A DNA stretch of 29,047 bases, from positions 1-29,047 of IMG/VR virus record IMGVR_UViG_3300036846_001176, one strand, 5' to 3'. How positions within the stretch are numbered: position 1 is the stretch's first letter; every line of letters begins with the position of its first letter. This document shows, one piece after another, positions 9,078 to 25,629 of this stretch. The stretch is from a virus. A program made the position numbers and the translations under genes. The notes under the pieces are model-generated. The model was not told the DNA's origin, ran no database searches, and saw only the letters and a list, made by a program, of their open reading frames with translations.

Positions 9078-9899
9078 TCACAGTCGCTCTGCGATCTCCT
9101 TGATGATGGTGGCGTTGTACCGCCGGACCTCCTGCTCGATCGTGCCGAGGTCAGGGAACATCTGTCGCAACTGACCGATCTGCTGATCGATATGCGCGAC
9201 GAGCTCCGTCTCGCCTTTGGCGGCGAAGCTCTCCCTGACCGTGGTGTGTTCGACCAGGGCCTTGGCGGCAAACGGGCGTAAGATAGCGCGGGGATGCCCC
9301 ATCGGGTCCCGCTCCAGTCCGCTGATCGCCTCGCGGCGGATCGATGTGCAGATGTCCTGGTAGGCAGCATAGAGCCGCCCGCCGGGCTGGATCACATCCT
9401 CATCGGGGATCAGTTTCCAACCGTCCTTTTCACGGTCCTTGACCACCCGTTCCTTGGAGACCCGCTCGATGTCAGCGAGCGTGTCGACCGAGGCCCATTG
9501 GAACACCTCGAGGTATTCCGGCGGGGATCGGTCCAAAAGCATATTTCCTAACGCATGCGCAACTTCTGCGCGGCCGACCATCTCCCCCGGCTTGCCGCCT
9601 CCGAAGGCGATCAAGGCACGTTGGTTGTAGGCGAGCCGCTCGACATCGTGCACGCGTTCGAAATGCCGTTGGTTGGGATCCGTCCGCCAGGCCACGAGGG
9701 GCCCGGCAAGGGCAGCGATCTGGTTATGACCAAGGGGTGCTGAGTGACCGAGCATGCTATGTAAATCTCTAAACATAGCAAGTGCAGGACCAGGGACACC
9801 AAAGCGAGCGCATTCGGCCAGCACTAACTGGAAGAAATCGCTCTGTGTAGCGGACAATGAAAGCGGGTTGCGGAGCATCTGTGCGATGTCCATTGCCAT
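9078..9899 (-). CDS. hypothetical protein (273 aa)
   Basis: Start MAMDIAQ after the leader motif; the ORF-track extension to 10085 runs through an ncRNA. Confidence 0.8.
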   Translation of the reverse strand: MAMDIAQMLRNPLSLSATQSDFFQLVLAECARFGVPGPALAMFRDLHSMLGHSAPLGHNQIAALAGPLVAWRTDPNQRHFERVHDVERLAYNQRALIAFGGGKPGEMVGRAEVAHALGNMLLDRSPPEYLEVFQWASVDTLADIERVSKERVVKDREKDGWKLIPDEDVIQPGGRLYAAYQDICTSIRREAISGLERDPMGHPRAILRPFAAKALVEHTTVRESFAAKGETELVAHIDQQIGQLRQMFPDLGTIEQEVRRYNATIIKEIAERL

Positions 9900-9986: not shown

Positions 9987-10083
9987 GCAGGACCCGGAGT
10001 GGTACTCCTGGGTCCTGCGTCGCCGGGCCTGCCGCGCCATGCCTTGTTCGGCCGAGCCCTGTCCAGGCTCGCCATGCCCTGAC
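9987..10083 (-). ncRNA. GGC-NN guide-like small RNA B (1 unit, 10 NN)
   Basis: TTGCTT-16-TAGACT promoter (10117-10090), array, GGCA-GGCCCGGC, hairpin 9987-10018. Confidence 0.85.
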
Positions 10084-15556: not shown

Positions 15557-16972
15557 ATGTCCGACCGTTCAGACCGAGGCCGCAGCCCCACCGCGCAAGC
15601 CGCCCTCGCCCCCGAAGTCTCGCCCGACGGCGCCCGCATCAACACCCCCACGGGCTGGCTCATCGATGCCGACGGCAATCGGTTCTCCTTGGTCCGCACC
15701 GCCGACAAAGGCATGCAGATCCGCATCAACGCGTTCGTGGATCAGATCACGCAGTACGTCCTCGCCCTGCAGATGCAGGACGGCACCTGCTACCAGGAAA
15801 CCTCGACCTCCGGCTGGTACGTCTACGGCGGCGCGCCAGGCAACTGGACCAGCAGCCCTGCACCCCCCGGCAGTGGCGCTGGGGGTGGCGGCGGTGGTGG
15901 CGGCGGTGGCCCCACCCCGCCAGTCTCCGGCGGCCTCACCGTGCGCAATGGCCGTGTCGTCGACGACAAGGGCAACGACGTGCACCTGCGTGGGCCAAAT
16001 CTCAGGTTCATGAATTGGCCGGACAACCAGAACTCGGTGATGATGCATCCGATCGCCGATCGGCAGCGTTGCCTGCCGGTGCTCGACACCCTGCCCGGCA
16101 TGAACGTCGTCAGGTTCGATGCCTTCGAAAGTATGACCCAGTTCGACGCCGCATCGCCGCAGAACATCATTCCCTACATCGATGCCATCGTGAACAACGG
16201 CGTGTTCTGCGAGGTCGAGTGCCACATCTATCCCACCCTGCTGCAGGGCGGCGACCTCGAGCGCGTCTGCGGCTGGTACTCGCAACTCGCCCGCCACTAC
16301 AAAGACAATCCGAAAGTCATCTGGGGCACGCAGAATGAACCCGGCGGCGGGCCGGATGGTGAAATCAACCGGATCTACGATGCTATCCGAAACGAGGGCA
16401 ATCAGAATTTGATCCTGATGTGCCCGGAAGGCGGATGGTCGTGGTCGAACATGAACCCGGTCAACTACCAGCGCCTGCGCAATGTCGCTTGGGATTTCCA
16501 CTACTACGGCTGGATCCCCAACTATTCCATGGACCCCGCCGTCAACGATCAGGTCCTGCTCGACAACTACAACGGCTCGCTGCGCTTCCAGTCGGCCGAC
16601 GGCAACATCCCGATGTTCGTCGGCGAATTCAGTCCATGCGGCTTCCAGAACTCGAACGCGATTTTCGTGGAAAACGCCTTCTGGATGGACCCCAACGGCC
16701 TCTTGGTCATCGATAGCGTCTACCGCGCGCCGTTCCTCTCGGGTTGGATGCAATGGTTCTGGAATACCCCGGAGACCTCGGCCAGCAACGGGATCGGATT
16801 TTTGCTGAAACCGGATGGCAATTACAACGGCAGCGCCGTTACCGATCACGGCGGCAAGCAGATGGTCGAAGCGCTCCGCCGCGGCTCGCCGGCGGCCGCC
16901 TCGGCTAGCGCCCAAAGCGACGCCAGCGCCGCCGCCGTCGATCAGCGCCAGACCCAGACCAGGGGCCGCTAA
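15557..16972 (+). CDS. glycoside hydrolase family 5-like protein
   Basis: LTVRNGRVVD..G..VHLRGPN, GMNVVR, NEP (acid/base), FHYY, FVGEF (nucleophile); N-terminal domain plus Gly/Pro linker. Confidence 0.85.
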   Translation: MSDRSDRGRSPTAQAALAPEVSPDGARINTPTGWLIDADGNRFSLVRTADKGMQIRINAFVDQITQYVLALQMQDGTCYQETSTSGWYVYGGAPGNWTSSPAPPGSGAGGGGGGGGGGPTPPVSGGLTVRNGRVVDDKGNDVHLRGPNLRFMNWPDNQNSVMMHPIADRQRCLPVLDTLPGMNVVRFDAFESMTQFDAASPQNIIPYIDAIVNNGVFCEVECHIYPTLLQGGDLERVCGWYSQLARHYKDNPKVIWGTQNEPGGGPDGEINRIYDAIRNEGNQNLILMCPEGGWSWSNMNPVNYQRLRNVAWDFHYYGWIPNYSMDPAVNDQVLLDNYNGSLRFQSADGNIPMFVGEFSPCGFQNSNAIFVENAFWMDPNGLLVIDSVYRAPFLSGWMQWFWNTPETSASNGIGFLLKPDGNYNGSAVTDHGGKQMVEALRRGSPAAASASAQSDASAAAVDQRQTQTRGR

Positions 16973-18704: not shown

Positions 18705-19128
18705 ACTCGAACGTCGCCTGTTGCGGTGGAAACTCCCTCAGCGTGTGCGGGATCTTCTCCGCTTCGACCACGTCCCAGAACTCGCGCGGGTTGCGCACTA
18801 CGCTCACCGTGTGACCCATCTCGATCAGCCGCGCATGCATCGCGGGCTGCGCGCCTGTGAGGTCGGTGCGCAGGTGCCATAGCGTCCGTTCGAGTTTGAC
18901 CTCGATCCAGTGCAGCCGCGCCGTCGGCAACACCAGCAGCAGATCCGGCAGCCCTTCGACCAGCCCCATCCGGGTGATCAACCGCAGCGTCTCCGGCGTG
19001 CGATAGCTGCCGTTGCCGGTCATCGCCAGGATCGCGTGTTCCGGCTTCACATGCCCGGCGAACAGCTCCACCAGGTAGATCTGCAGCCGGGTCTCGTACT
19101 GGTTGCGCCGGGGCGGCGCGGTGTTCAC
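18631..19128 (-). CDS. VRR-NUC-like nuclease
   Basis: E..LQ...GLVEGLPDL...WIEVK...Q. Confidence 0.85.
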   Translation of the reverse strand: MNTAPPRRNQYETRLQIYLVELFAGHVKPEHAILAMTGNGSYRTPETLRLITRMGLVEGLPDLLLVLPTARLHWIEVKLERTLWHLRTDLTGAQPAMHARLIEMGHTVSVVRNPREFWDVVEAEKIPHTLREFPPQQATFEFSRRPVKRARTSRGSRPSVPAASE

Positions 19129-19490
19129 GCCGCCTTCGCCTTGCGCTTGCGCCGCGGCCGGCTGTTCTTCGAGCCACGCGGCCGGCCAGGCCCGCGCCGG
19201 CCGGGGAAGCTGAAGGTCTCGCCGCGCCGGTGCGCCTGCGCCCGCTCGACCAGCGACGCCAGATGCTGCAGCGTGTCCATCTTCGGCCGCCACTCCGGAT
19301 CGGTCAGCTTCAAGAGGCTGTTCTTGTGCACACCGCTGACCTGCTCGAGCATGCCAAGCGTGTAGCCGTGCTTGTTGCGCAGGAAGGTCGCCGCCCGGCG
19401 GATCTCGTCGAGCAGCGTGAGGCCACGGTCGACATAGGCCTCGATCCGGTGGCTGAATGAGGGTGGGCTCAAGGTCGCCGTCGTATCCAT
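19125..19490 (-). CDS. HTH regulator with AT-hook-like basic tail
   Basis: YTLGMLEQVSGVHKNSL...PKMDTLQHL; RGPGRPRGSKN. Confidence 0.75.
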   Translation of the reverse strand: MDTTATLSPPSFSHRIEAYVDRGLTLLDEIRRAATFLRNKHGYTLGMLEQVSGVHKNSLLKLTDPEWRPKMDTLQHLASLVERAQAHRRGETFSFPGRRGPGRPRGSKNSRPRRKRKAKAA

Positions 19491-19548
19491 GACCACGGGG
19501 ATGTAAGGAGTATCGGGTGCTTTGTCGATTGTGACTGTTACCTAAACG

Positions 19549-20034
19549 ATGGCCGCCTACCGTCGCAAACCGGTGCGGGCCGCGAGGGCCGAGCTGGTCT
19601 GGCGCGATGGGCGATGTATTGCCACCGTTCCGACGGTCGGGCCGACGCCCGAAAGGCTCGCCAAGGGCGACGTGGTCGGCCGGCGTGCGTTGCAGCGGAA
19701 CGTGATCGAGGAGATCGGCGACGCCGGCGAGCTCGGCGAGGACGTCGCTCAACTCGCCGCGGCGGCTGAGTGGTTCACCACGCAGGCGCACTTGGCACAG
19801 GTGCGTGGGCGGATGGTCTATTCGCAGTTGGTGACGGAACTGCCGACCAGTGCTTCGGCCGAGAAGGTGCGCGCACGCCAACTTCTAGCGCGGGCGTGCG
19901 GGGTGCTTGGGCATGATGCGTGGAGCATTTTGTCTGATACGCTGGTGTGGGACAGCCCGATCCGTGGCCCCGAGCGGCGGGCCATGTTTCGCATGGCGCT
20001 GCGCGCGCTCAGCAAGGCGTTGACGGCCACCTGA
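19549..20034 (+). CDS. hypothetical phage protein, possibly a late regulator
   Basis: Divergent ORF with a helical C-terminus; function is inference. Confidence 0.6.
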   Translation: MAAYRRKPVRAARAELVWRDGRCIATVPTVGPTPERLAKGDVVGRRALQRNVIEEIGDAGELGEDVAQLAAAAEWFTTQAHLAQVRGRMVYSQLVTELPTSASAEKVRARQLLARACGVLGHDAWSILSDTLVWDSPIRGPERRAMFRMALRALSKALTAT

Positions 20035-20054
20035 AAACGCTGCACATATTGTTG

Positions 20055-20584
20055 TGCTAGGCTCGTCTAGGCATGTCCTGGCTCGGCAAGGCGTGGCAGG
20101 GCAGGCAGCGCACGGCGGGGCTTGGCCCGGCAACGCAGGGCTCGGCATGGCAGGCACGGCTAGGCTCGGCATGTCAGGGCGCGCCTAGGCATGGCGGGGC
20201 AGGCGGGGCTGGGCTCGGCGAGGCACGTCGCGGCGAGGCTGGGCTCGGCAGGCACGGTTAGGCTTGCCACGGCCAGCCGCGGCACGGCACGGCAGGCTAG
20301 GCTCGGCAACGCGAGGCGCGACGAGGCGCGGCATGGCAGGCGAGGCTTGGCGTGGCTAGGCGCGACAGGGCCCGGCACGGCAGGCTAGGCGCGCCAAGGC
20401 AAGGCAGGGCGCGGCGTGCCCAGGCTCGGCTAGGCAAGGCAGGCGCGCCCTGGCACGGCAAGGCGCGGCGCGCCCAGGCTCGGCTAGGCAGGCAAGGCTT
20501 GGCCTGGCACGACGGGGCTGGGCGCGGCATGGCAGGGCACGGCCGGCACAGCGTTTCGGCAACGGTTCACCGGTCCGGAAACGC
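20055..20584 (+). ncRNA. long GGC-NN guide-like array (10 units)
   Basis: Pentamers punctuated by GGCA at 20100, 20149, 20198, 20247, 20291, 20335, 20379, 20438, 20487 and GGCC at 20541; TTGACG at 20020; 3' hairpin containing ACGGTTCACCGG. Confidence 0.9.
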
Positions 20585-20635
20585 AAAAAACCCCCAGCCA
20601 GTCCAGGGGTTCGTTAACCTGGACTAGCTGGGGGT
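20585..20635 (-). terminator. intrinsic terminator
   Basis: CCCCCAGCTAGTCCAGG...CCTGGACTGGCTGGGGG followed by T6 on the minus strand. Confidence 0.85.
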
Positions 20636-21337
20636 GAGTTACGGCAGGCACGATGCCTGCCGAGCCATACGGGCGAGATTTTGGGGGTCTCACCGCATGG
20701 CATGGGAATTCGGTTGAGGTTCTGGCGAAGGCCGGGAGGCACTGTATCCTCAAGTCCGGGCGACGCCTCGTCTGCCTGCCGTGAGTTCCCTCACAAGGCA
20801 GAGCCTCTAGCCGCACCGCCCCATCTGGCGACGCCCACAGCCGTGGGCGAAGCTCAAACTGGCAGCCCCCCACAGGCCAAAGGCAGGGGTTGTGTCATTT
20901 GCCTGCCGTGAAGCAGGCGTGGCTTGACGCTGGGAGCGATGCGACATCGAGCAACTCGCCGACTGGATGGGCCAAAAGCGCACCCACCGGCACCACGTGA
21001 CTGGCATCGGTCCCTAGATCACAAGGATAGGGCTCTGCCGGGTGGTCGTGGCATCAGCTTGCTGCGAGCCTGCCCATAGTCGAAGCCGTGGGCAGGGATC
21101 GTTCGAGGGTTTAGGCAGGATGGTGGCAGCCACCCATTAGTGCCTGGTTCGCGCCGCTTAGGCTTGCCACGGCTATGCGAAATTCCTTTTGGTTTCCTCC
21201 CTCGACGGGATCCGATCAAGTCACCGGGCAACCGGGCCCGGAGCATCTTATCGCGGCGAAGGCCGCTATCGCCACTGACGGGAGCGAAGACGTCCGCTTG
21301 ATCACTACGGGACTGATATGGTTATCCGTCCCGCAGT
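20585..21337 (-). ncRNA. candidate large structured ncRNA (about 750 nt)
   Basis: No credible ORF; many stems; TACACT at 21348-21343; strong terminator. Confidence 0.6.
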
Positions 21338-21367
21338 CATCAAGTGTATTCCGTAACAAAAATGCGG

Positions 21368-21964
21368 CTACAGCTCTGCAAAGTGCTGTACCGATTGCTC
21401 GGGATGGCCGAATGGGTTGAACACCATTCGCACCCCGAGCGGCTCGGCGAGGAATTCAAACGTCGCCGAGCCCGGCATGTGCCGGAGGTCGTGCAGGTTG
21501 AGAAACGCAAGGGTCAGCTTGCGCGCCATGTGCAGCAGGTCCCCCGTGGTCACACGTGGCAGCCGATCGGGTTCGTCTGCCGTCATCGGATCGTCCTGGG
21601 GCTCAACGAGCCCGGAGGACAGTGCATGTCTGCTTGTCCAGTTGGCGCCCCATGGGCGCGGCTGGAACGAAATGGTGGCAGCGCCGGCGTCGCGGAATGT
21701 GACGATCGCGCGCTGGCTGTCGGCTACGCGGGCAAATGCCGCGAGGATGGCTAGGCCGAGGTCAATCGCCTCGGTGTAGGCTTTGGGCTTTGGCTTCGCT
21801 TTGCGGAGCCGGTCGTAGTGCATCGGCATGCGGAGGGCGAGCAGTGCTCGCTCATGTGCCGCCCACAGCGCGTTCATGGGCCGGTTCGTCACCGGCAGTG
21901 CGTTGTGGAACTGCTTGGTCTCCTGCAATGCATCAACGATGCGCTCGACATGAGGGTTTGGCAT
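21368..21964 (-). CDS. hypothetical protein
   Basis: Leader motif upstream of MPNPHV. Confidence 0.65.
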   Translation of the reverse strand: MPNPHVERIVDALQETKQFHNALPVTNRPMNALWAAHERALLALRMPMHYDRLRKAKPKPKAYTEAIDLGLAILAAFARVADSQRAIVTFRDAGAATISFQPRPWGANWTSRHALSSGLVEPQDDPMTADEPDRLPRVTTGDLLHMARKLTLAFLNLHDLRHMPGSATFEFLAEPLGVRMVFNPFGHPEQSVQHFAEL

Positions 21965-22030
21965 GGATCTGCCTTTCGCGCCCAATGGCAGGGGCGTTCT
22001 CTGCCCCACGCCATTATGACGTGGGAAAGG

Positions 22031-22474
22031 TCAGGGTCGTTTTTCGGTCCAGGTCTTGAACTCGCGGAGCTGCTCGGGATCGAGCCAGTCCCAGCGTCCC
22101 TCGAAGCGGATCGCGCGGTCGTCGATCGTCAGGAAGGCGGGAGGTTTCTGGTTGGTAAACTCCAGGAGAATGAGATCTGCCCGGCGTGCGTGCAGCAGCC
22201 GCAGGAACGGTGAAGCTTCGCTCGGAAAATCGGTAATTTGCCAGCCTTCCTGGAAGGCGTGTCCACCGATCCAGACTGCCATTTCTTTGATGCTGTCCGG
22301 GTCTTTCGAGCGTGAGCTGTAAACGACCAGGCGGAAGTGCTTGCCGGCCTTGTGGGCCCAATCGAGAAACCCTGGCGTCACGGTGCCGTAGAGCTCGCCG
22401 TTCTGCCAGCCTCGCTCATAGCTGTGGATTACGCCATCAAAGTCGAGACAGATGACCGGACGATCGCTTGGCAT
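22031..22474 (-). CDS. HAD-superfamily phosphatase-like protein
   Basis: ICLDFDGVIH, YSSR, KPPA..TIDDRA. Confidence 0.85.
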   Translation of the reverse strand: MPSDRPVICLDFDGVIHSYERGWQNGELYGTVTPGFLDWAHKAGKHFRLVVYSSRSKDPDSIKEMAVWIGGHAFQEGWQITDFPSEASPFLRLLHARRADLILLEFTNQKPPAFLTIDDRAIRFEGRWDWLDPEQLREFKTWTEKRP

Positions 22475-22527
22475 GGCGTGGCCTTTCGTGCCGTTGACGG
22501 ACGATGAAAACACTGCACATTATCTTG

Positions 22528-22682
22528 GACCAGGCTCGGCATGGCAAGTTCCGGCTCGGCGTGGCAGGGAGTGGCCCGGCTAGGCACGGCAGGCGTGGCG
22601 GGGCCTGGCTCGTCCGGGCAAGGCACGGCGTGGCGCGGCCGGCACGGCAAGCCCCGCGGCAACGGTTCACCGGCCGCGGGGC
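22528..22682 (+). ncRNA. GGC-NN guide-like small RNA C (2 units, 12 + 9 NN)
   Basis: TTGACG at 22494; GGCA at 22588; GGCC at 22637; hairpin 22651-22682 with ACGGTTCACCGG. Confidence 0.85.
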
Positions 22683-22689
22683 ACCTCCC

Positions 22690-22899
22690 TTAGAACGCTA
22701 GCAGCAGCAACTGCTCGGCGCCGTACACGGAACGTTGGCCACACGCCTCGCACTTGTAGCGCTCGGCATCCGGTTCACAACCTTCCGCGTCGGCGCCGCA
22801 ATCGATGCAAAAACCTGGATTGTCCAGGTCCAGCAAACCTTGCTCAGCCGCCTGCTGGACGCGTTCCTGGGTCAGGCTCGGGTGGAGTTTCAGTGCCAT
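22690..22899 (-). CDS. small zinc-ribbon protein
   Basis: GFCIDCG...EPDA..YKCEACG...VYGAE. Confidence 0.8.
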   Translation of the reverse strand: MALKLHPSLTQERVQQAAEQGLLDLDNPGFCIDCGADAEGCEPDAERYKCEACGQRSVYGAEQLLLLAF

Positions 22900-23002
22900 G
22901 TGGTGGCCTTTCGCCGGAGTACAGCCGGCTCTCTGCCGTGCTGCGTTGGTGCAGCACGAAAGGCGGGTTGACAGCTTTCGTAAATATAGAACATGATGAT
23001 GT

Positions 23003-23105
23003 GTCCTCGCCTGGCGAGGCAAGGCCTGTCCGGGCCAGACGCGGCGCGACTTGGCACGGCGCGGCAGGCTTGAGGAACCCCGCAGCTGTAGCCGCGGGGT
23101 TCTTC
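23003..23105 (+). ncRNA. GGC-NN guide-like small RNA D (1 unit, 12 NN)
   Basis: TTGACA-18-CATGAT (22968-22997), array, GGCA at 23063, hairpin 23072-23105. Confidence 0.85.
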
Positions 23106-23115
23106 GTTTGCGCGG

Positions 23116-23583
23116 TCAGCCGTGAAACGCTGCGTGGCGCAATTTTTCTAACAGACCTTCGGCGATTTGCGCTGTCAGCGCGGGGCATTCGCTGGTGGTC
23201 GCGTTCATGAGCAGCTTGGCCAGGACCTTGGCCTCGACCTCGGTGACCGGGAGCATGGTCGTGAGGTAGACTGGCGGCTCGATGGTGACCTGGCCGGCGA
23301 ACAAATAGTCCTCGGCGCCTGCATCTTCAGGCTTCATGCCTGATGCGTTGTCGAAGCAGTTTTCCAACACGCAATCAGCGGCCTCCGCCAACTCAGGCGA
23401 GAGCTCGATCGAGAGCGGCCAGGTGGCCGTGTCGGTCGCGTTGCCGATCAGTGTCTGGAGGTCATCGAGGTGCAGGGCGCGGTCGGCTTCTCCGTTGTCC
23501 GCCGCGACCTCGCTCATGCCTTCGGCCATGGAGCAGAACACCTTTGCGGCGCGAAGATCGGCGATCGTTAAGCTGTGGCTCAT
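23116..23583 (-). CDS. hypothetical protein (MSHSLT...)
   Basis: ATGA coupling with 23580-23774. Confidence 0.75.
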   Translation of the reverse strand: MSHSLTIADLRAAKVFCSMAEGMSEVAADNGEADRALHLDDLQTLIGNATDTATWPLSIELSPELAEAADCVLENCFDNASGMKPEDAGAEDYLFAGQVTIEPPVYLTTMLPVTEVEAKVLAKLLMNATTSECPALTAQIAEGLLEKLRHAAFHG

Positions 23584-23774
23584 GAGCAGTAGCCTTCGGC
23601 TACGAGCTCGATCACGACGGCGCGCCCGTCTGGGATACGCCGTTCGTGTGCTGATAGGCACTGTTCGAGCGCCTCGATGGCATCGAGGGCTCCGCTGGCT
23701 GCGTCATCTGCTGGACAACCAGGCTTAGGATGACAGAATTGCAGCAGCGTTCTGAGTGCGGTTTGGGGATCCAT
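23580..23774 (-). CDS. hypothetical protein (MDPQTAL...)
   Basis: Leader motif at 23781-23838. Confidence 0.7.
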   Translation of the reverse strand: MDPQTALRTLLQFCHPKPGCPADDAASGALDAIEALEQCLSAHERRIPDGRAVVIELVAEGYCS

Positions 23775-23780
23775 GTGGAT

Positions 23781-23838
23781 GCCTTTCGCCGGAGACAGCC
23801 GGCTCTCTGCCGTGGCGCGTTGGTGCGACACGAAAGGC
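23781..23838 (-). promoter_or_regulatory. RBS-sequestering leader, clearest copy
   Basis: GCCUUUC-[GUGUCGCACCAACGCGCCAC]-GGCAGAGA-[GCCGGCUGUCUCCGGC]-GAAAGGC-N6-AUG. Confidence 0.85.
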
Positions 23839-23840
23839 AC

Positions 23841-23887
23841 AAACGAAAAGCCCCGCCTCGCAGAGGCGAGAACGGGGCTGAGTTTCG
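23841..23887 (-). terminator. intrinsic terminator-like hairpin
   Basis: AGCCCCG...CGGGGCT followed by TTTCGTTT. Confidence 0.6.
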
Positions 23888-23897
23888 TGTTTGACGG

Positions 23898-24122
23898 CTA
23901 GTGGGGCGGGGGTTCGCCGCGTGCCCAGCTAGCCAGCAAGGCGTAATGCGCAGCTCGGGCGGCTGCGATGATCCTTGGGTTTTCGGTGTGACCGGCGGCT
24001 CCGACGCGCGCCTTCGAGCTGCGGATCTTTTGACCCCAGCCCTTGAACTGCTTGTCGTAGTGACGGTCGTAGGCGGCGATCACGTCCCAAGGGCGACGTG
24101 TGTAGCCTCTAGCTCTTGGCAT
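23898..24122 (-). CDS. hypothetical protein
   Basis: AGGAG RBS; promoter motif at 24220. Confidence 0.6.
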   Translation of the reverse strand: MPRARGYTRRPWDVIAAYDRHYDKQFKGWGQKIRSSKARVGAAGHTENPRIIAAARAAHYALLASWARGEPPPH

Positions 24123-24309
24123 TATTATCTCCTGTGTGGCGGGGCATATTGATTATCTCCCTCGCCGTACCGCGGTATCAGCCGCGGCTCTCATGCACCC
24201 GGATGGGTTGCACATAGCATATATGGTAATAACTGAACACATTGCAATATACGCAATAAACCGACACCAGAAAAGCCGAAAACCCCCTGGGGCACAGGGG
24301 GTCTTGGGG

Positions 24310-24609
24310 TTAGTAACAAACGTAATGTCCCCACCGGTTCCAGTAGCAATACTCGGGGGTGGAGGCAGCGCTGGCGGCAGCTGCGCCGACCAGGAGGACG
24401 CCGAGGGCGATGCCACCGATCGTCTTGGCGACGTTCGAGTTGGCTTCGTCCTGGTTGATTTTCTCTTGGATGGGCACAAGCTGGCAGGCTTGTTGGTTGC
24501 CGATGCCACAGGCGGTGCGGAGTTGTCCGAGCCGTTGGATGTTGGCTTCGCTCGCGCAGCCGGCGAGCATGGCAAGCACCAGCGCGAGGCTGATGGTTTT
24601 CTTAAACAT
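24310..24609 (-). CDS. putative lipoprotein
   Basis: MFKK + hydrophobic stretch + LAGC lipobox; second hydrophobic segment. Confidence 0.8.
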   Translation of the reverse strand: MFKKTISLALVLAMLAGCASEANIQRLGQLRTACGIGNQQACQLVPIQEKINQDEANSNVAKTIGGIALGVLLVGAAAASAASTPEYCYWNRWGHYVCY

Positions 24610-24708
24610 GTGGAATGCTTTCTACGCCCAAACAGGGACGCTCTCTGCCCCGTTGGATGTTCGGGGAAGTTAATTGACGATGATGGAAAATGGCACATAC
24701 AATGCTGT

Positions 24709-24792
24709 GCTATGGCATGGCTTGGCAACGCCGGCCATGGCACGGCAGGGCAGGCATGGCATCCCGCGGCGACGGTTCACCGGCCGCGGGGT
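24709..24792 (+). ncRNA. GGC-NN guide-like small RNA E (1 unit, 7-8 NN)
   Basis: TTGACG-18-TACAAT (24674-24703); GGCA at 24749; hairpin with ACGGTTCACCGG. Confidence 0.8.
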
Positions 24793-24863
24793 CACTCTGT
24801 GCTTTCACGCCCGAACAGGGGCGTTCTCTGCCCTCCGGCGTTGGTGCTGGAGGAAAGCCACCC

Positions 24864-25067
24864 TTAACGGGTGGTCGTCTTGCTTGGCGGGAACAGGTCC
24901 GGCCTGGCAGCGGCCAGGTCGCGGAGTGCCCGCACGATTGCGTTGCCAACGCGGACCGAGGGGACTTCGAGGTCAAACATTCCGTCGTAACCGGAGCACT
25001 TGACGCGGTAGCCCGTCGGCCTGATGCCGATGAGGCTGATCAGGTTGGCGATTTCGCGCTTGTTCAT
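24864..25067 (-). CDS. hypothetical protein
   Basis: ATGA coupling. Confidence 0.6.
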   Translation of the reverse strand: MNKREIANLISLIGIRPTGYRVKCSGYDGMFDLEVPSVRVGNAIVRALRDLAAARPDLFPPSKTTTR

Positions 25068-25378
25068 TTGCGCGCCTTGAGGATTTCTTGGACGTTGGCG
25101 TCCAGGTCGTCCATGACCTTTTGTGTTGCCGCCCGCAAGTCCGTTTTGAACTTGTCGAGGAAGGCTTGGTCGATGTGGAATGGGTTCTTGGGTTCGTCAA
25201 CGATCTCGTTGACGTCGGTCGCCTCATCGTAAGTGGCGACCAGGTGCTTCTGCATGAACTCGTGATCCTCAGTGAATTCTTCGAGGGTCTCGCGTGCAGA
25301 GGCGGTGACGAGGTCTGGCGCGTCTATGGTGAAGACGTGCACATGGACGGTGTTAACCGTGACCTTGAACTTTGGCAT
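25064..25378 (-). CDS. hypothetical protein
   Basis: Leader motif upstream. Confidence 0.75.
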   Translation of the reverse strand: MPKFKVTVNTVHVHVFTIDAPDLVTASARETLEEFTEDHEFMQKHLVATYDEATDVNEIVDEPKNPFHIDQAFLDKFKTDLRAATQKVMDDLDANVQEILKARK

Positions 25379-25443
25379 TGTGTAGCCTTTCGCATCCTAT
25401 CAGGGATGCACTCTGCCGGATCGGTGATCCGAAAGGCGCCCGC

Positions 25444-25629
25444 TCAATGAACGGGCTGCTCGTAAAACCATTTACCGGTTTGTCCCGAGCTGAGGGTGAA
25501 TACACCGGAGCGCTGGTTGTTGTTGATCTGCGCCTCGATGGTGGCTCGCATTTCTGCGATCTCCTCGACATCCTCGCCATCGACAGTGTCGACTTCGATG
25601 ATGATGGATAGAGGGTGAGTTTCGTGCAT
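25444..25629 (-). CDS. small acidic hypothetical protein
   Basis: Leader variant upstream. Confidence 0.65.
   Translation of the reverse strand: MHETHPLSIIIEVDTVDGEDVEEIAEMRATIEAQINNNQRSGVFTLSSGQTGKWFYEQPVH

Follow-up and report, generated by a model that had tools for sequence, protein, structure and literature searches.

A putative detached ten-guide VIPR array in a phage genome, with edge guides that nearly match neighbouring DNA

The 29,047-nt stretch that we analysed (the window) opens the 104,559-bp record of a soil phage, which has a terminal overlap (IMGVR_UViG_3300036846_001176, here G000), and contains ten tandem units built of GGC/NN pentamers (the W array). The question raised by this locus is what kind of array it is, how its content changes and at what DNA its units are directed. 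A first-pass annotation had read it as a master array with a CRISPR-like higher-order period.

The array and its place in the genome

On recount, the ten units (W1-W10), the 5n+4 spacings and the NN strings proved to be as that annotation had listed them. Each unit comprises 8-11 pentamers plus an overlapping GGCAG, and adjoining units are divided by a 1-nt overlap (GGCAG/GC). In particular, GGCAGGC lies at 20100, 20149, 20198, 20247, 20291, 20335, 20379, 20438 and 20487 (spacings 49, 49, 49, 44, 44, 44, 59 and 49), W10 is closed by a GGCC variant at 20541 (spacing 54), and every spacing is of the form 5n+4, that is, neighbours overlap by 1 nt. In-register pentamers begin with GGC in 71 of 89 cases, compared to 4% in the genome at large (P about 1e-80), and with GGY in 72 of 89; GGCAGGC is absent from 362 of the 418 500-bp windows of the genome. 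Note that a single 12.4-kb contig of the likely source run spans the whole stretch with 0 differences and that a variant of the stretch is present in two other studies, which argues that the W stretch is no assembly artefact. The 3' tail, borne within the W array by the final unit only, is a plain bulged hairpin common to the W array, a 17-unit main array and cassettes B and F (Table 1); its loop caps the stem in 6 of 6 copies although the stem sequences differ.

Table 1. Positions of guides, near-targets and accessory features in the window
Feature	Position	Strand	Remarks
Solo guide C1	2229..2290	+	
D1 near-target	9751..9779	-	same peptide, 10/10 residues; mismatches only Arg, Leu, Ser codon-family swaps
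Solo guide D1	10025..10083	-	
Promoter-like leader, TTGACG-N6-7-GAAAA-N-GCACAT	20020..20054	+	promoter suggested by motif before guide cassettes
Staggered vrRNA array, ten guides W1-W10	20055..20544	+	pentamer register
Guide starts, W1-W10	20060, 20104, 20153, 20202, 20251, 20295, 20339, 20383, 20442, 20491	+	
W7+W8 block missing in close strain	20339..20441	+	joint 20341->20442 in runs X2, X3
W10, guide with near-self match 400 bp downstream	20491..20544	+	16/20 self, 18/20 variant site
3' tail, stem with AA bulge and CGG-UUCA-CCG loop	20545..20584	+	stem pairing across copies
Terminator-like hairpin 3' of tail	20588..20635	not assigned	-35.9 kcal/mol, z -6.35
W10 near-target in conserved, apparently non-coding stretch	20953..20981	+	
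B1 near-target in adjacent HAD-like gene	22362..22393	+	17/22, codon register; divergence hotspot between strains
Cassette B, two guides, leader and tail as in W	22494..22685	+	
Solo guide E1	23013..23105	+	near-target 23120-23148, end of adjacent gene, 16/20
Solo cassette F, leader and tail as in W	24674..24795	+	

Tandem GGY/NN pentamers, about 9-16 per guide, and a structured 3' tail characterize VIPR guides, a 1-nt overlap of adjoining guides characterizes their staggered arrays, and the W array has each of these. Conserved repeats alternating with contiguous spacers, by which CRISPR arrays are recognized, are not found in it, and Rfam gave no CRISPR repeat in 19000-25500. Staggered vrRNA arrays, in which neighbouring guides overlap by 1 nt, have already been described (Fig. 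S18 legend, bioRxiv 2026.04.26.720920), and arrays are present at 56 of 59 related vipr loci, where 289 of 377 units end in the same GGCA step (near-duplicate loci are kept in both counts). The higher-order period is not novel but is this published layout, the norm in this Vipr clade, and the array type itself had already been described; RNA sequencing confirmed the ribozyme and single-guide layouts, not the staggered one (bioRxiv 10.64898/2026.04.26.720920).

Just beyond the end of the window lies a 281-aa vipr gene (G000 31468-32310, minus strand), whose stop is overlapped by a 168-aa vap-like ORF (phrog_15946). The core of Vipr was modelled with a pLDDT of 85 and found its top Foldseek matches in type III Csm and type VII CRISPR complexes, and the protein is predicted to fold like Cas7. 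It shares phrog_4652 with SUSP1 Vipr (YP_009199429.1), with which it also aligned by hhalign (93%, E 3e-7), and the G-loop GIGEGRP..GWGRF is conserved; the element carries both the RAMP protein (RRM core, thumb and G-loop) and the coupled vap gene of VIPR systems. A PDB sequence search with Vipr gave 0 matches, BLASTP found no likeness of the vap product to SUSP1 Vap1, Vap had neither a Pfam nor a PADLOC match, and, in these two proteins, no nuclease domain was found in Vipr or Vap by Pfam, nor in Vap by PADLOC.

The main array, of 17 units (G000 30,939-30,055), sits beside vipr-vap and ends in the same tail as the W array. Guides are scattered over nine loci of the genome, of which the W array lies 10-11 kb from vipr, on the opposite strand and behind its own leader. 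The leader motif occurs 3 times in the 104.6-kb genome (20020, 22494 and 24674), each time immediately 5' of a guide cassette (W, B and F). Because the tail is common to the main array, W, B and F, and the leader to W, B and F, the W array, judged from its sequence, is a detached array of the phage's own VIPR system and not its master array. (Note that the ends of solo-cassette guides were set by eye; guide H1, if taken to have 13 units, reaches only 17/26.) The best matches of the phage's SSB are Acetobacteraceae plasmid SSBs and its terminase is nearest to those of Rhizobium phages, from which we infer an alphaproteobacterial host. Elsewhere in the window, a 471-aa gene (15557-16972) has a glycine linker and a domain that resembles, by eye, a glycoside hydrolase, with no PHROG match. 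The segment 22896-22964 aligns a second time further downstream in the source contig (beyond 23300) and represents a small dispersed repeat that precedes several genes.

Changes in array content

The syntenic site holds ten guides in G000, one unrelated guide in a 102.6-kb sister genome and none in G001 (91.5 kb, without vipr). (In G001, which has neither vipr nor guides, a long repeat of another kind, the GCTGCGCTC type, is found upstream of the syntenic region, at L003 6600-7800.) Comparison of the array between strains, proposed by the first-pass annotation, revealed an in-register loss or gain of units 7-8: in a close strain (runs X2 and X3, two other studies) the array skips 20342-20441 in register and is without W7 and W8. 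Besides this block, the listed differences of the variant array comprise four changed NN bases and three scaffold substitutions, each of which brings the pentamer closer to GGC; in the tail, a compensatory double change has turned a T.G into a G-C (pairing read by hand).

The stretch shared by units 8 and 9, as already named, measures 19 nt. W8 and W9 are identical in register at 5 of 9 pentamers, including two irregular GCC scaffolds (5 of 2000 under a shuffle null); all 27 scaffold bases are the same in the two units, and 5 of the 18 NN bases differ. An identical scaffold with differences only at NN supports duplication followed by NN drift, with W8 as a probable diverged copy of W9 changed only at NN. 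Together with the in-register absence of units 7-8 from the close strain, this supports the earlier proposal of growth by duplication, by which the W array likely expands. When compared as possible copies, W7 and W6 agree at 7 of 16 NN bases and share one irregular scaffold. General block shuffling between guides was rejected, with 3 shared three-pentamer blocks found and 4.0 expected.

Near-matches of edge guides and searches for targets

We found near-matches to neighbouring DNA (within 1.5 kb, P<0.05, read with a 1-nt skip) for 7 of 12 edge guides, i.e. solo, first or last guides, and for 0 of 23 inner guides (Fisher P 1e-4). With skips of 0, 2 or 3, each of the seven edge guides scored lower than with the 1-nt skip and the local near-matches were not seen. 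At other loci the trend was weaker, with near-matches in 8 of 73 solo or first guides and 5 of 251 inner or last guides (P 0.002; 324 guides kept after identical NN strings were removed). Within genes, the skip falls on the wobble base; matching of this kind was seen for M1, M7, D1, E1, B1, H1 and I1, and for W10 in non-coding DNA, W1-W9 not being among them. The reading of the units as distinct guides, decoded with gaps, is supported. For C1, a local match was not found in the neighbouring DNA.

Every near-self match found contains at least one mismatch. For D1, the encoded peptide is identical to that of the neighbouring gene, and mismatches arise only at AGA, TTA and AGC codons of the gene (AGA makes up 1.2% of Arg codons, TTA 0.8% of Leu codons); D1 matches its own gene at 16/20 and the two relatives tested at 16/20 and 14/20 (the latter by hand). 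M1 matches the sister's vipr at 20/22 and its own at 18/22, H1 matches a relative at 16/18 and self at 15/18, and the sister's first guide, on vap genes, scores 19/22 across and 17/22 on self. The self-matches of 80-89% (D1, E1, M1 and the sister's sD, 16/18) reach the 80% that serves as the cut-off for natural targets in bioRxiv 10.64898/2026.04.26.720920. At the B1 site there are about 10 changes in 32 bp between strains compared to 2.6 expected (P 3.5e-4; by hand, among the changes listed). A bias toward A/T at the wobble positions of near-self sites is marginal (48/73 versus 1054/1374 G/C, P 0.047) and is driven by D1 and M1. The A/T-rich wobble stretch at window 9690-9830, about 30 codons round the D1 near-target (8/28 G/C compared to 75% in the rest of the gene), is wider than the D1 footprint. 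In another phage locus (L026 10637), a solo guide directly 3' of vipr near-matches that vipr's G-loop codons at 15/18.

Although the first-pass annotation had reported no strong target in the window, W10 has a near-target there (Table 1), to which it matches at 16/20 under the 1-nt skip rule (local P 0.007, which would not survive correction over 35 guides). The variant strain differs at this site by two substitutions, each of which replaces a mismatched base with the one that the guide calls for (P 0.002-0.015), so that the W10 of the present strain matches the variant site at 18/20. The variant strain's own W10 has two NN changes and is back to 16/20 on its own site; in the reverse direction, the variant W10 matches the site of the present strain at 14/20. 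Note that this is one guide pair only, and that in the variant strain the W array and the W10 site are on separate contigs (depth 5.0 and 5.2). As W10 matches at 16/20 within each strain and at 18/20 across strains, the pattern points to kin targeting with self-avoidance, as read from these two pairs of sequences.

The region 20640-21340 of the window is apparently non-coding, with 78% identity to the sister over 200 bp and weak conservation in G001. It has a conserved promoter-like box near 21330, and a minus-strand terminator at 20612-20588 (read by eye) overlaps the hairpin 3' of the tail; the region is a candidate for an RNA of about 700 nt converging on the W array. No tmRNA, tRNA or Rfam family was found for the conserved stretch downstream of W, and three-way folds of this stretch were unreliable because the third sequence aligned poorly.

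Gapped searches against virome and host sequences, as the first-pass annotation had proposed, gave nothing above background for W2, W3, W8, W9 and W10, and did give matches for the main-array guide M7. Exact scans yielded 0 matches for W8, W9 and W10 in viral contigs and for W8 and W10 in metagenomes, a scan of five phage records with W10 gave no result, and the one exact match of W2 in viral contigs, in a giant-virus bin, is about the chance expectation. In 121-151 genomes, W8, W2 and W3 had 1, 1 and 1 matches compared to 4, 2 and 0 control matches (151 genomes for W8 and W2; 121 for W3, with its last base left out), and W1 and W4-W7 were scanned against the fetched loci and G000 itself only. 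Within these scopes no target was found for W1-W9, and no perfect, credible target for W1-W10; the genome sample was class-wide, so blanks do not show absence of targets. (Note that the scores of W2, W3, W8 and M7 at loci picked by those same patterns are not evidence.) Matches of W2 to another phage's vipr (16/18) and of F1 (13/14) are off the wobble register and within chance for 63 guides. The suggestion that the units record foreign elements is therefore unproven for W1-W9, whose exact and near-exact gapped searches were at background, and W10 points to a kin copy of neighbouring phage DNA.

M7 (G000 30610-30556, minus strand) decodes to a patatin catalytic motif with a 22/22 match. In a sample of 401 genomes from the alphaproteobacterial class to which G006 (a Vineibacter genome) belongs, 36 had a match within 2 mismatches, 3 of them perfect, and the reversed control gave 0; foreign matches do exist for the main array, and the search approach can work. 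The matched loci that were fetched were patatins in 6 of 6 cases, two of the six in CBASS operons and one of these two a perfect match, so that M7 may be a case of RNA-guided silencing of a host defence gene. A guide of the sister (L006 11720) has the same patatin motif, shifted by one unit. M6 (G000 30669, minus strand) and the sister's guide at L006 11266 have 21 of 22 NN bases in common and different scaffold variants; M6 decodes to a D-P-P-W motif, which we take to be a methyltransferase motif, and matches at 19/24 in phage loci L025/L026. M12, B2, W2 and the sister's sM12 decode to strings that presumably resemble helix-turn-helix motifs of repressors.

Proposed mechanism, alternatives and related systems

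We consider it probable that W is a detached ten-guide staggered VIPR array, likely with its own promoter and likely loaded by Vipr in trans, whose edge guides silence the neighbouring DNA of relatives. The array would be transcribed from the promoter suggested by its leader, and the Cas7-like Vipr encoded by the same phage 11 kb away likely loads the W RNA. (Filament assembly, gapped pairing and repression are taken from the VIPR preprints, e.g. bioRxiv 2026.04.26.720920.) The 5-nt register is interrupted at each 1-nt overlap, so that a separate Vipr filament would start on every unit; the overlap may also be where the RNA is split into single guides. DNA binding by each unit is predicted to follow a two-of-three code and to silence the bound DNA. 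Content would change by gain or loss of whole units, seen between strains of which neither is assigned as ancestral, and by duplication followed by NN-only drift, for which W8/W9 would be the example, unequal recombination being the simplest mechanism and the direction our reading. W10 and other edge guides are likely directed against the neighbouring DNA as it occurs in relatives, with the match to the carrier's own copy kept at about 75-85% by change of target or guide. Because a guide against a shared gene could spread by recombination only with a tolerant allele, the two would travel together in a poison-and-antidote linkage, which we prefer over homing since no nuclease was found in Vipr or Vap. 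For the inner guides W1-W9, host genes or unrelated mobile elements are the likely targets, and the array as a whole is predicted to silence competitors while sparing its own phage.

More tentatively, we entertain the idea that the clade scatters guides as RNA-guided allele-exclusion modules. Edge guides would silence a relative's locus, the carrier's own match lying just under a binding threshold of ~80% by virtue of Leu/Arg/Ser recoding or retuning of the guide; guides would arise without an integrase, by duplication and NN-only drift; W would be a module grown into a second arsenal; and the W10 pair would bracket the threshold, with 16/20 tolerated and 18/20 hit.

The near-self matches could instead be the intended targets, in which case imperfect guides of a VIPR array would dampen vipr and the genes next to them in the carrier phage, as part of a timing or feedback circuit. 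The near-matches do adjoin the guides, M1 does match vipr, several of the matches reach 80-89%, and both strains keep W10 at 16/20. However, we consider such a circuit unlikely, given that no near-self match is perfect, that four guides fit a relative better than self, that the D1 mismatches use rare synonymous codons, and that the B1 site is a divergence hotspot. Alternatively, the array might be a decoy and, as solo vrRNAs do in SUSP1 satellites, sequester or divert Vipr made by co-infecting phages. Its detachment from vipr, and the fact that the searches found no targets for W1-W9, would suit such a role, which is described in bioRxiv 2026.10.15.759431; we nonetheless judge it improbable, as the genome has an intact vipr of its own, the main array has the same tail, and ten different NN strings are kept, none with multi-copy matches in the genomes searched. 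A CRISPR-like memory, with a dedicated process copying foreign DNA into the NN positions, could account for the exact enzyme motif of M7, which is hard to reach by drift alone, and for guides at the same site that differ wholly between relatives. Yet the array has no polarity, the block gained or lost being internal, W8/W9 look like duplication plus point change, and a search for a writer enzyme (not an exhaustive one) identified none, all of which makes memory very improbable in our estimation. Short open frames cross W and lend something to the idea that it is repetitive coding sequence, a neutral minisatellite rich in GC or an artefact of assembly. This idea is largely refuted by the leader and conserved tail that W has of its own, by the single error-free contig that spans it, by codon-register matches that appear only under the 1-nt skip, and by the presence of such arrays at 56 of the 59 vipr loci fetched.

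The new observations are the in-register W7-W8 indel between strains, the W8/W9 pair that differs only at NN, the better fit of W10 across strains than to self, and the near-matches of edge guides. In the text of the VIPR preprints, as far as it is accessible and supplementary data aside, we found no account of how guides arise or of how many mismatches are tolerated. The W locus offers natural test cases for both: the NN-only duplicate pair and the whole-unit indel for guide origin, and the W10 guide and site pairs at 14, 16, 16 and 18 of 20 for mismatch tolerance. The locus also suggests that a code described as resistant to synonymous change could be evaded through amino acids with six codons.

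Like the VIPR systems of bioRxiv 10.64898/2026.04.26.720920, the present one is phage-borne, pairs a RAMP-fold Vipr with one vap gene and reads a 1-nt skip code in codon register, and like the staggered arrays of that work, W has GGY/NN pentamers with a 1-nt overlap between guides. It differs in that W lies 10 kb from vipr, on the other strand and with its own leader; moreover, that work reports no self-hits of at least 80% in the P. fulva clade or types III and V, whereas G000 has several near that level. The tail of SUSP1 VIPR is a pseudoknot, whereas the tail here is a plain bulged hairpin. The solo or orphan vrRNAs of SUSP1 relatives (bioRxiv 10.64898/2026.10.15.759431) are alike in having guides away from vipr, guides against rivals' vipr and self-matches lower than cross-matches, and differ in that G000 has its own Vipr and its guides adjoin the near-targets; that preprint argues that the code blocks synonymous escape, whereas escape in G000 would use Leu/Arg/Ser codon-family swaps. 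Free-standing homing endonucleases and marker exclusion in T4 (PMC2988022) likewise set an intergenic element against a relative's allele hundreds of bases away; the likeness is one of analogy, not membership, as the present system is RNA-guided, no nuclease was found in Vipr or Vap, and gene conversion is part of the T4 case. With class 1 CRISPR arrays, finally, W shares many guides per precursor and a Cas7-like backbone protein, and it differs from them in its gapped pairing, in having no repeat-spacer alternation, and in changing internally rather than at the leader end.
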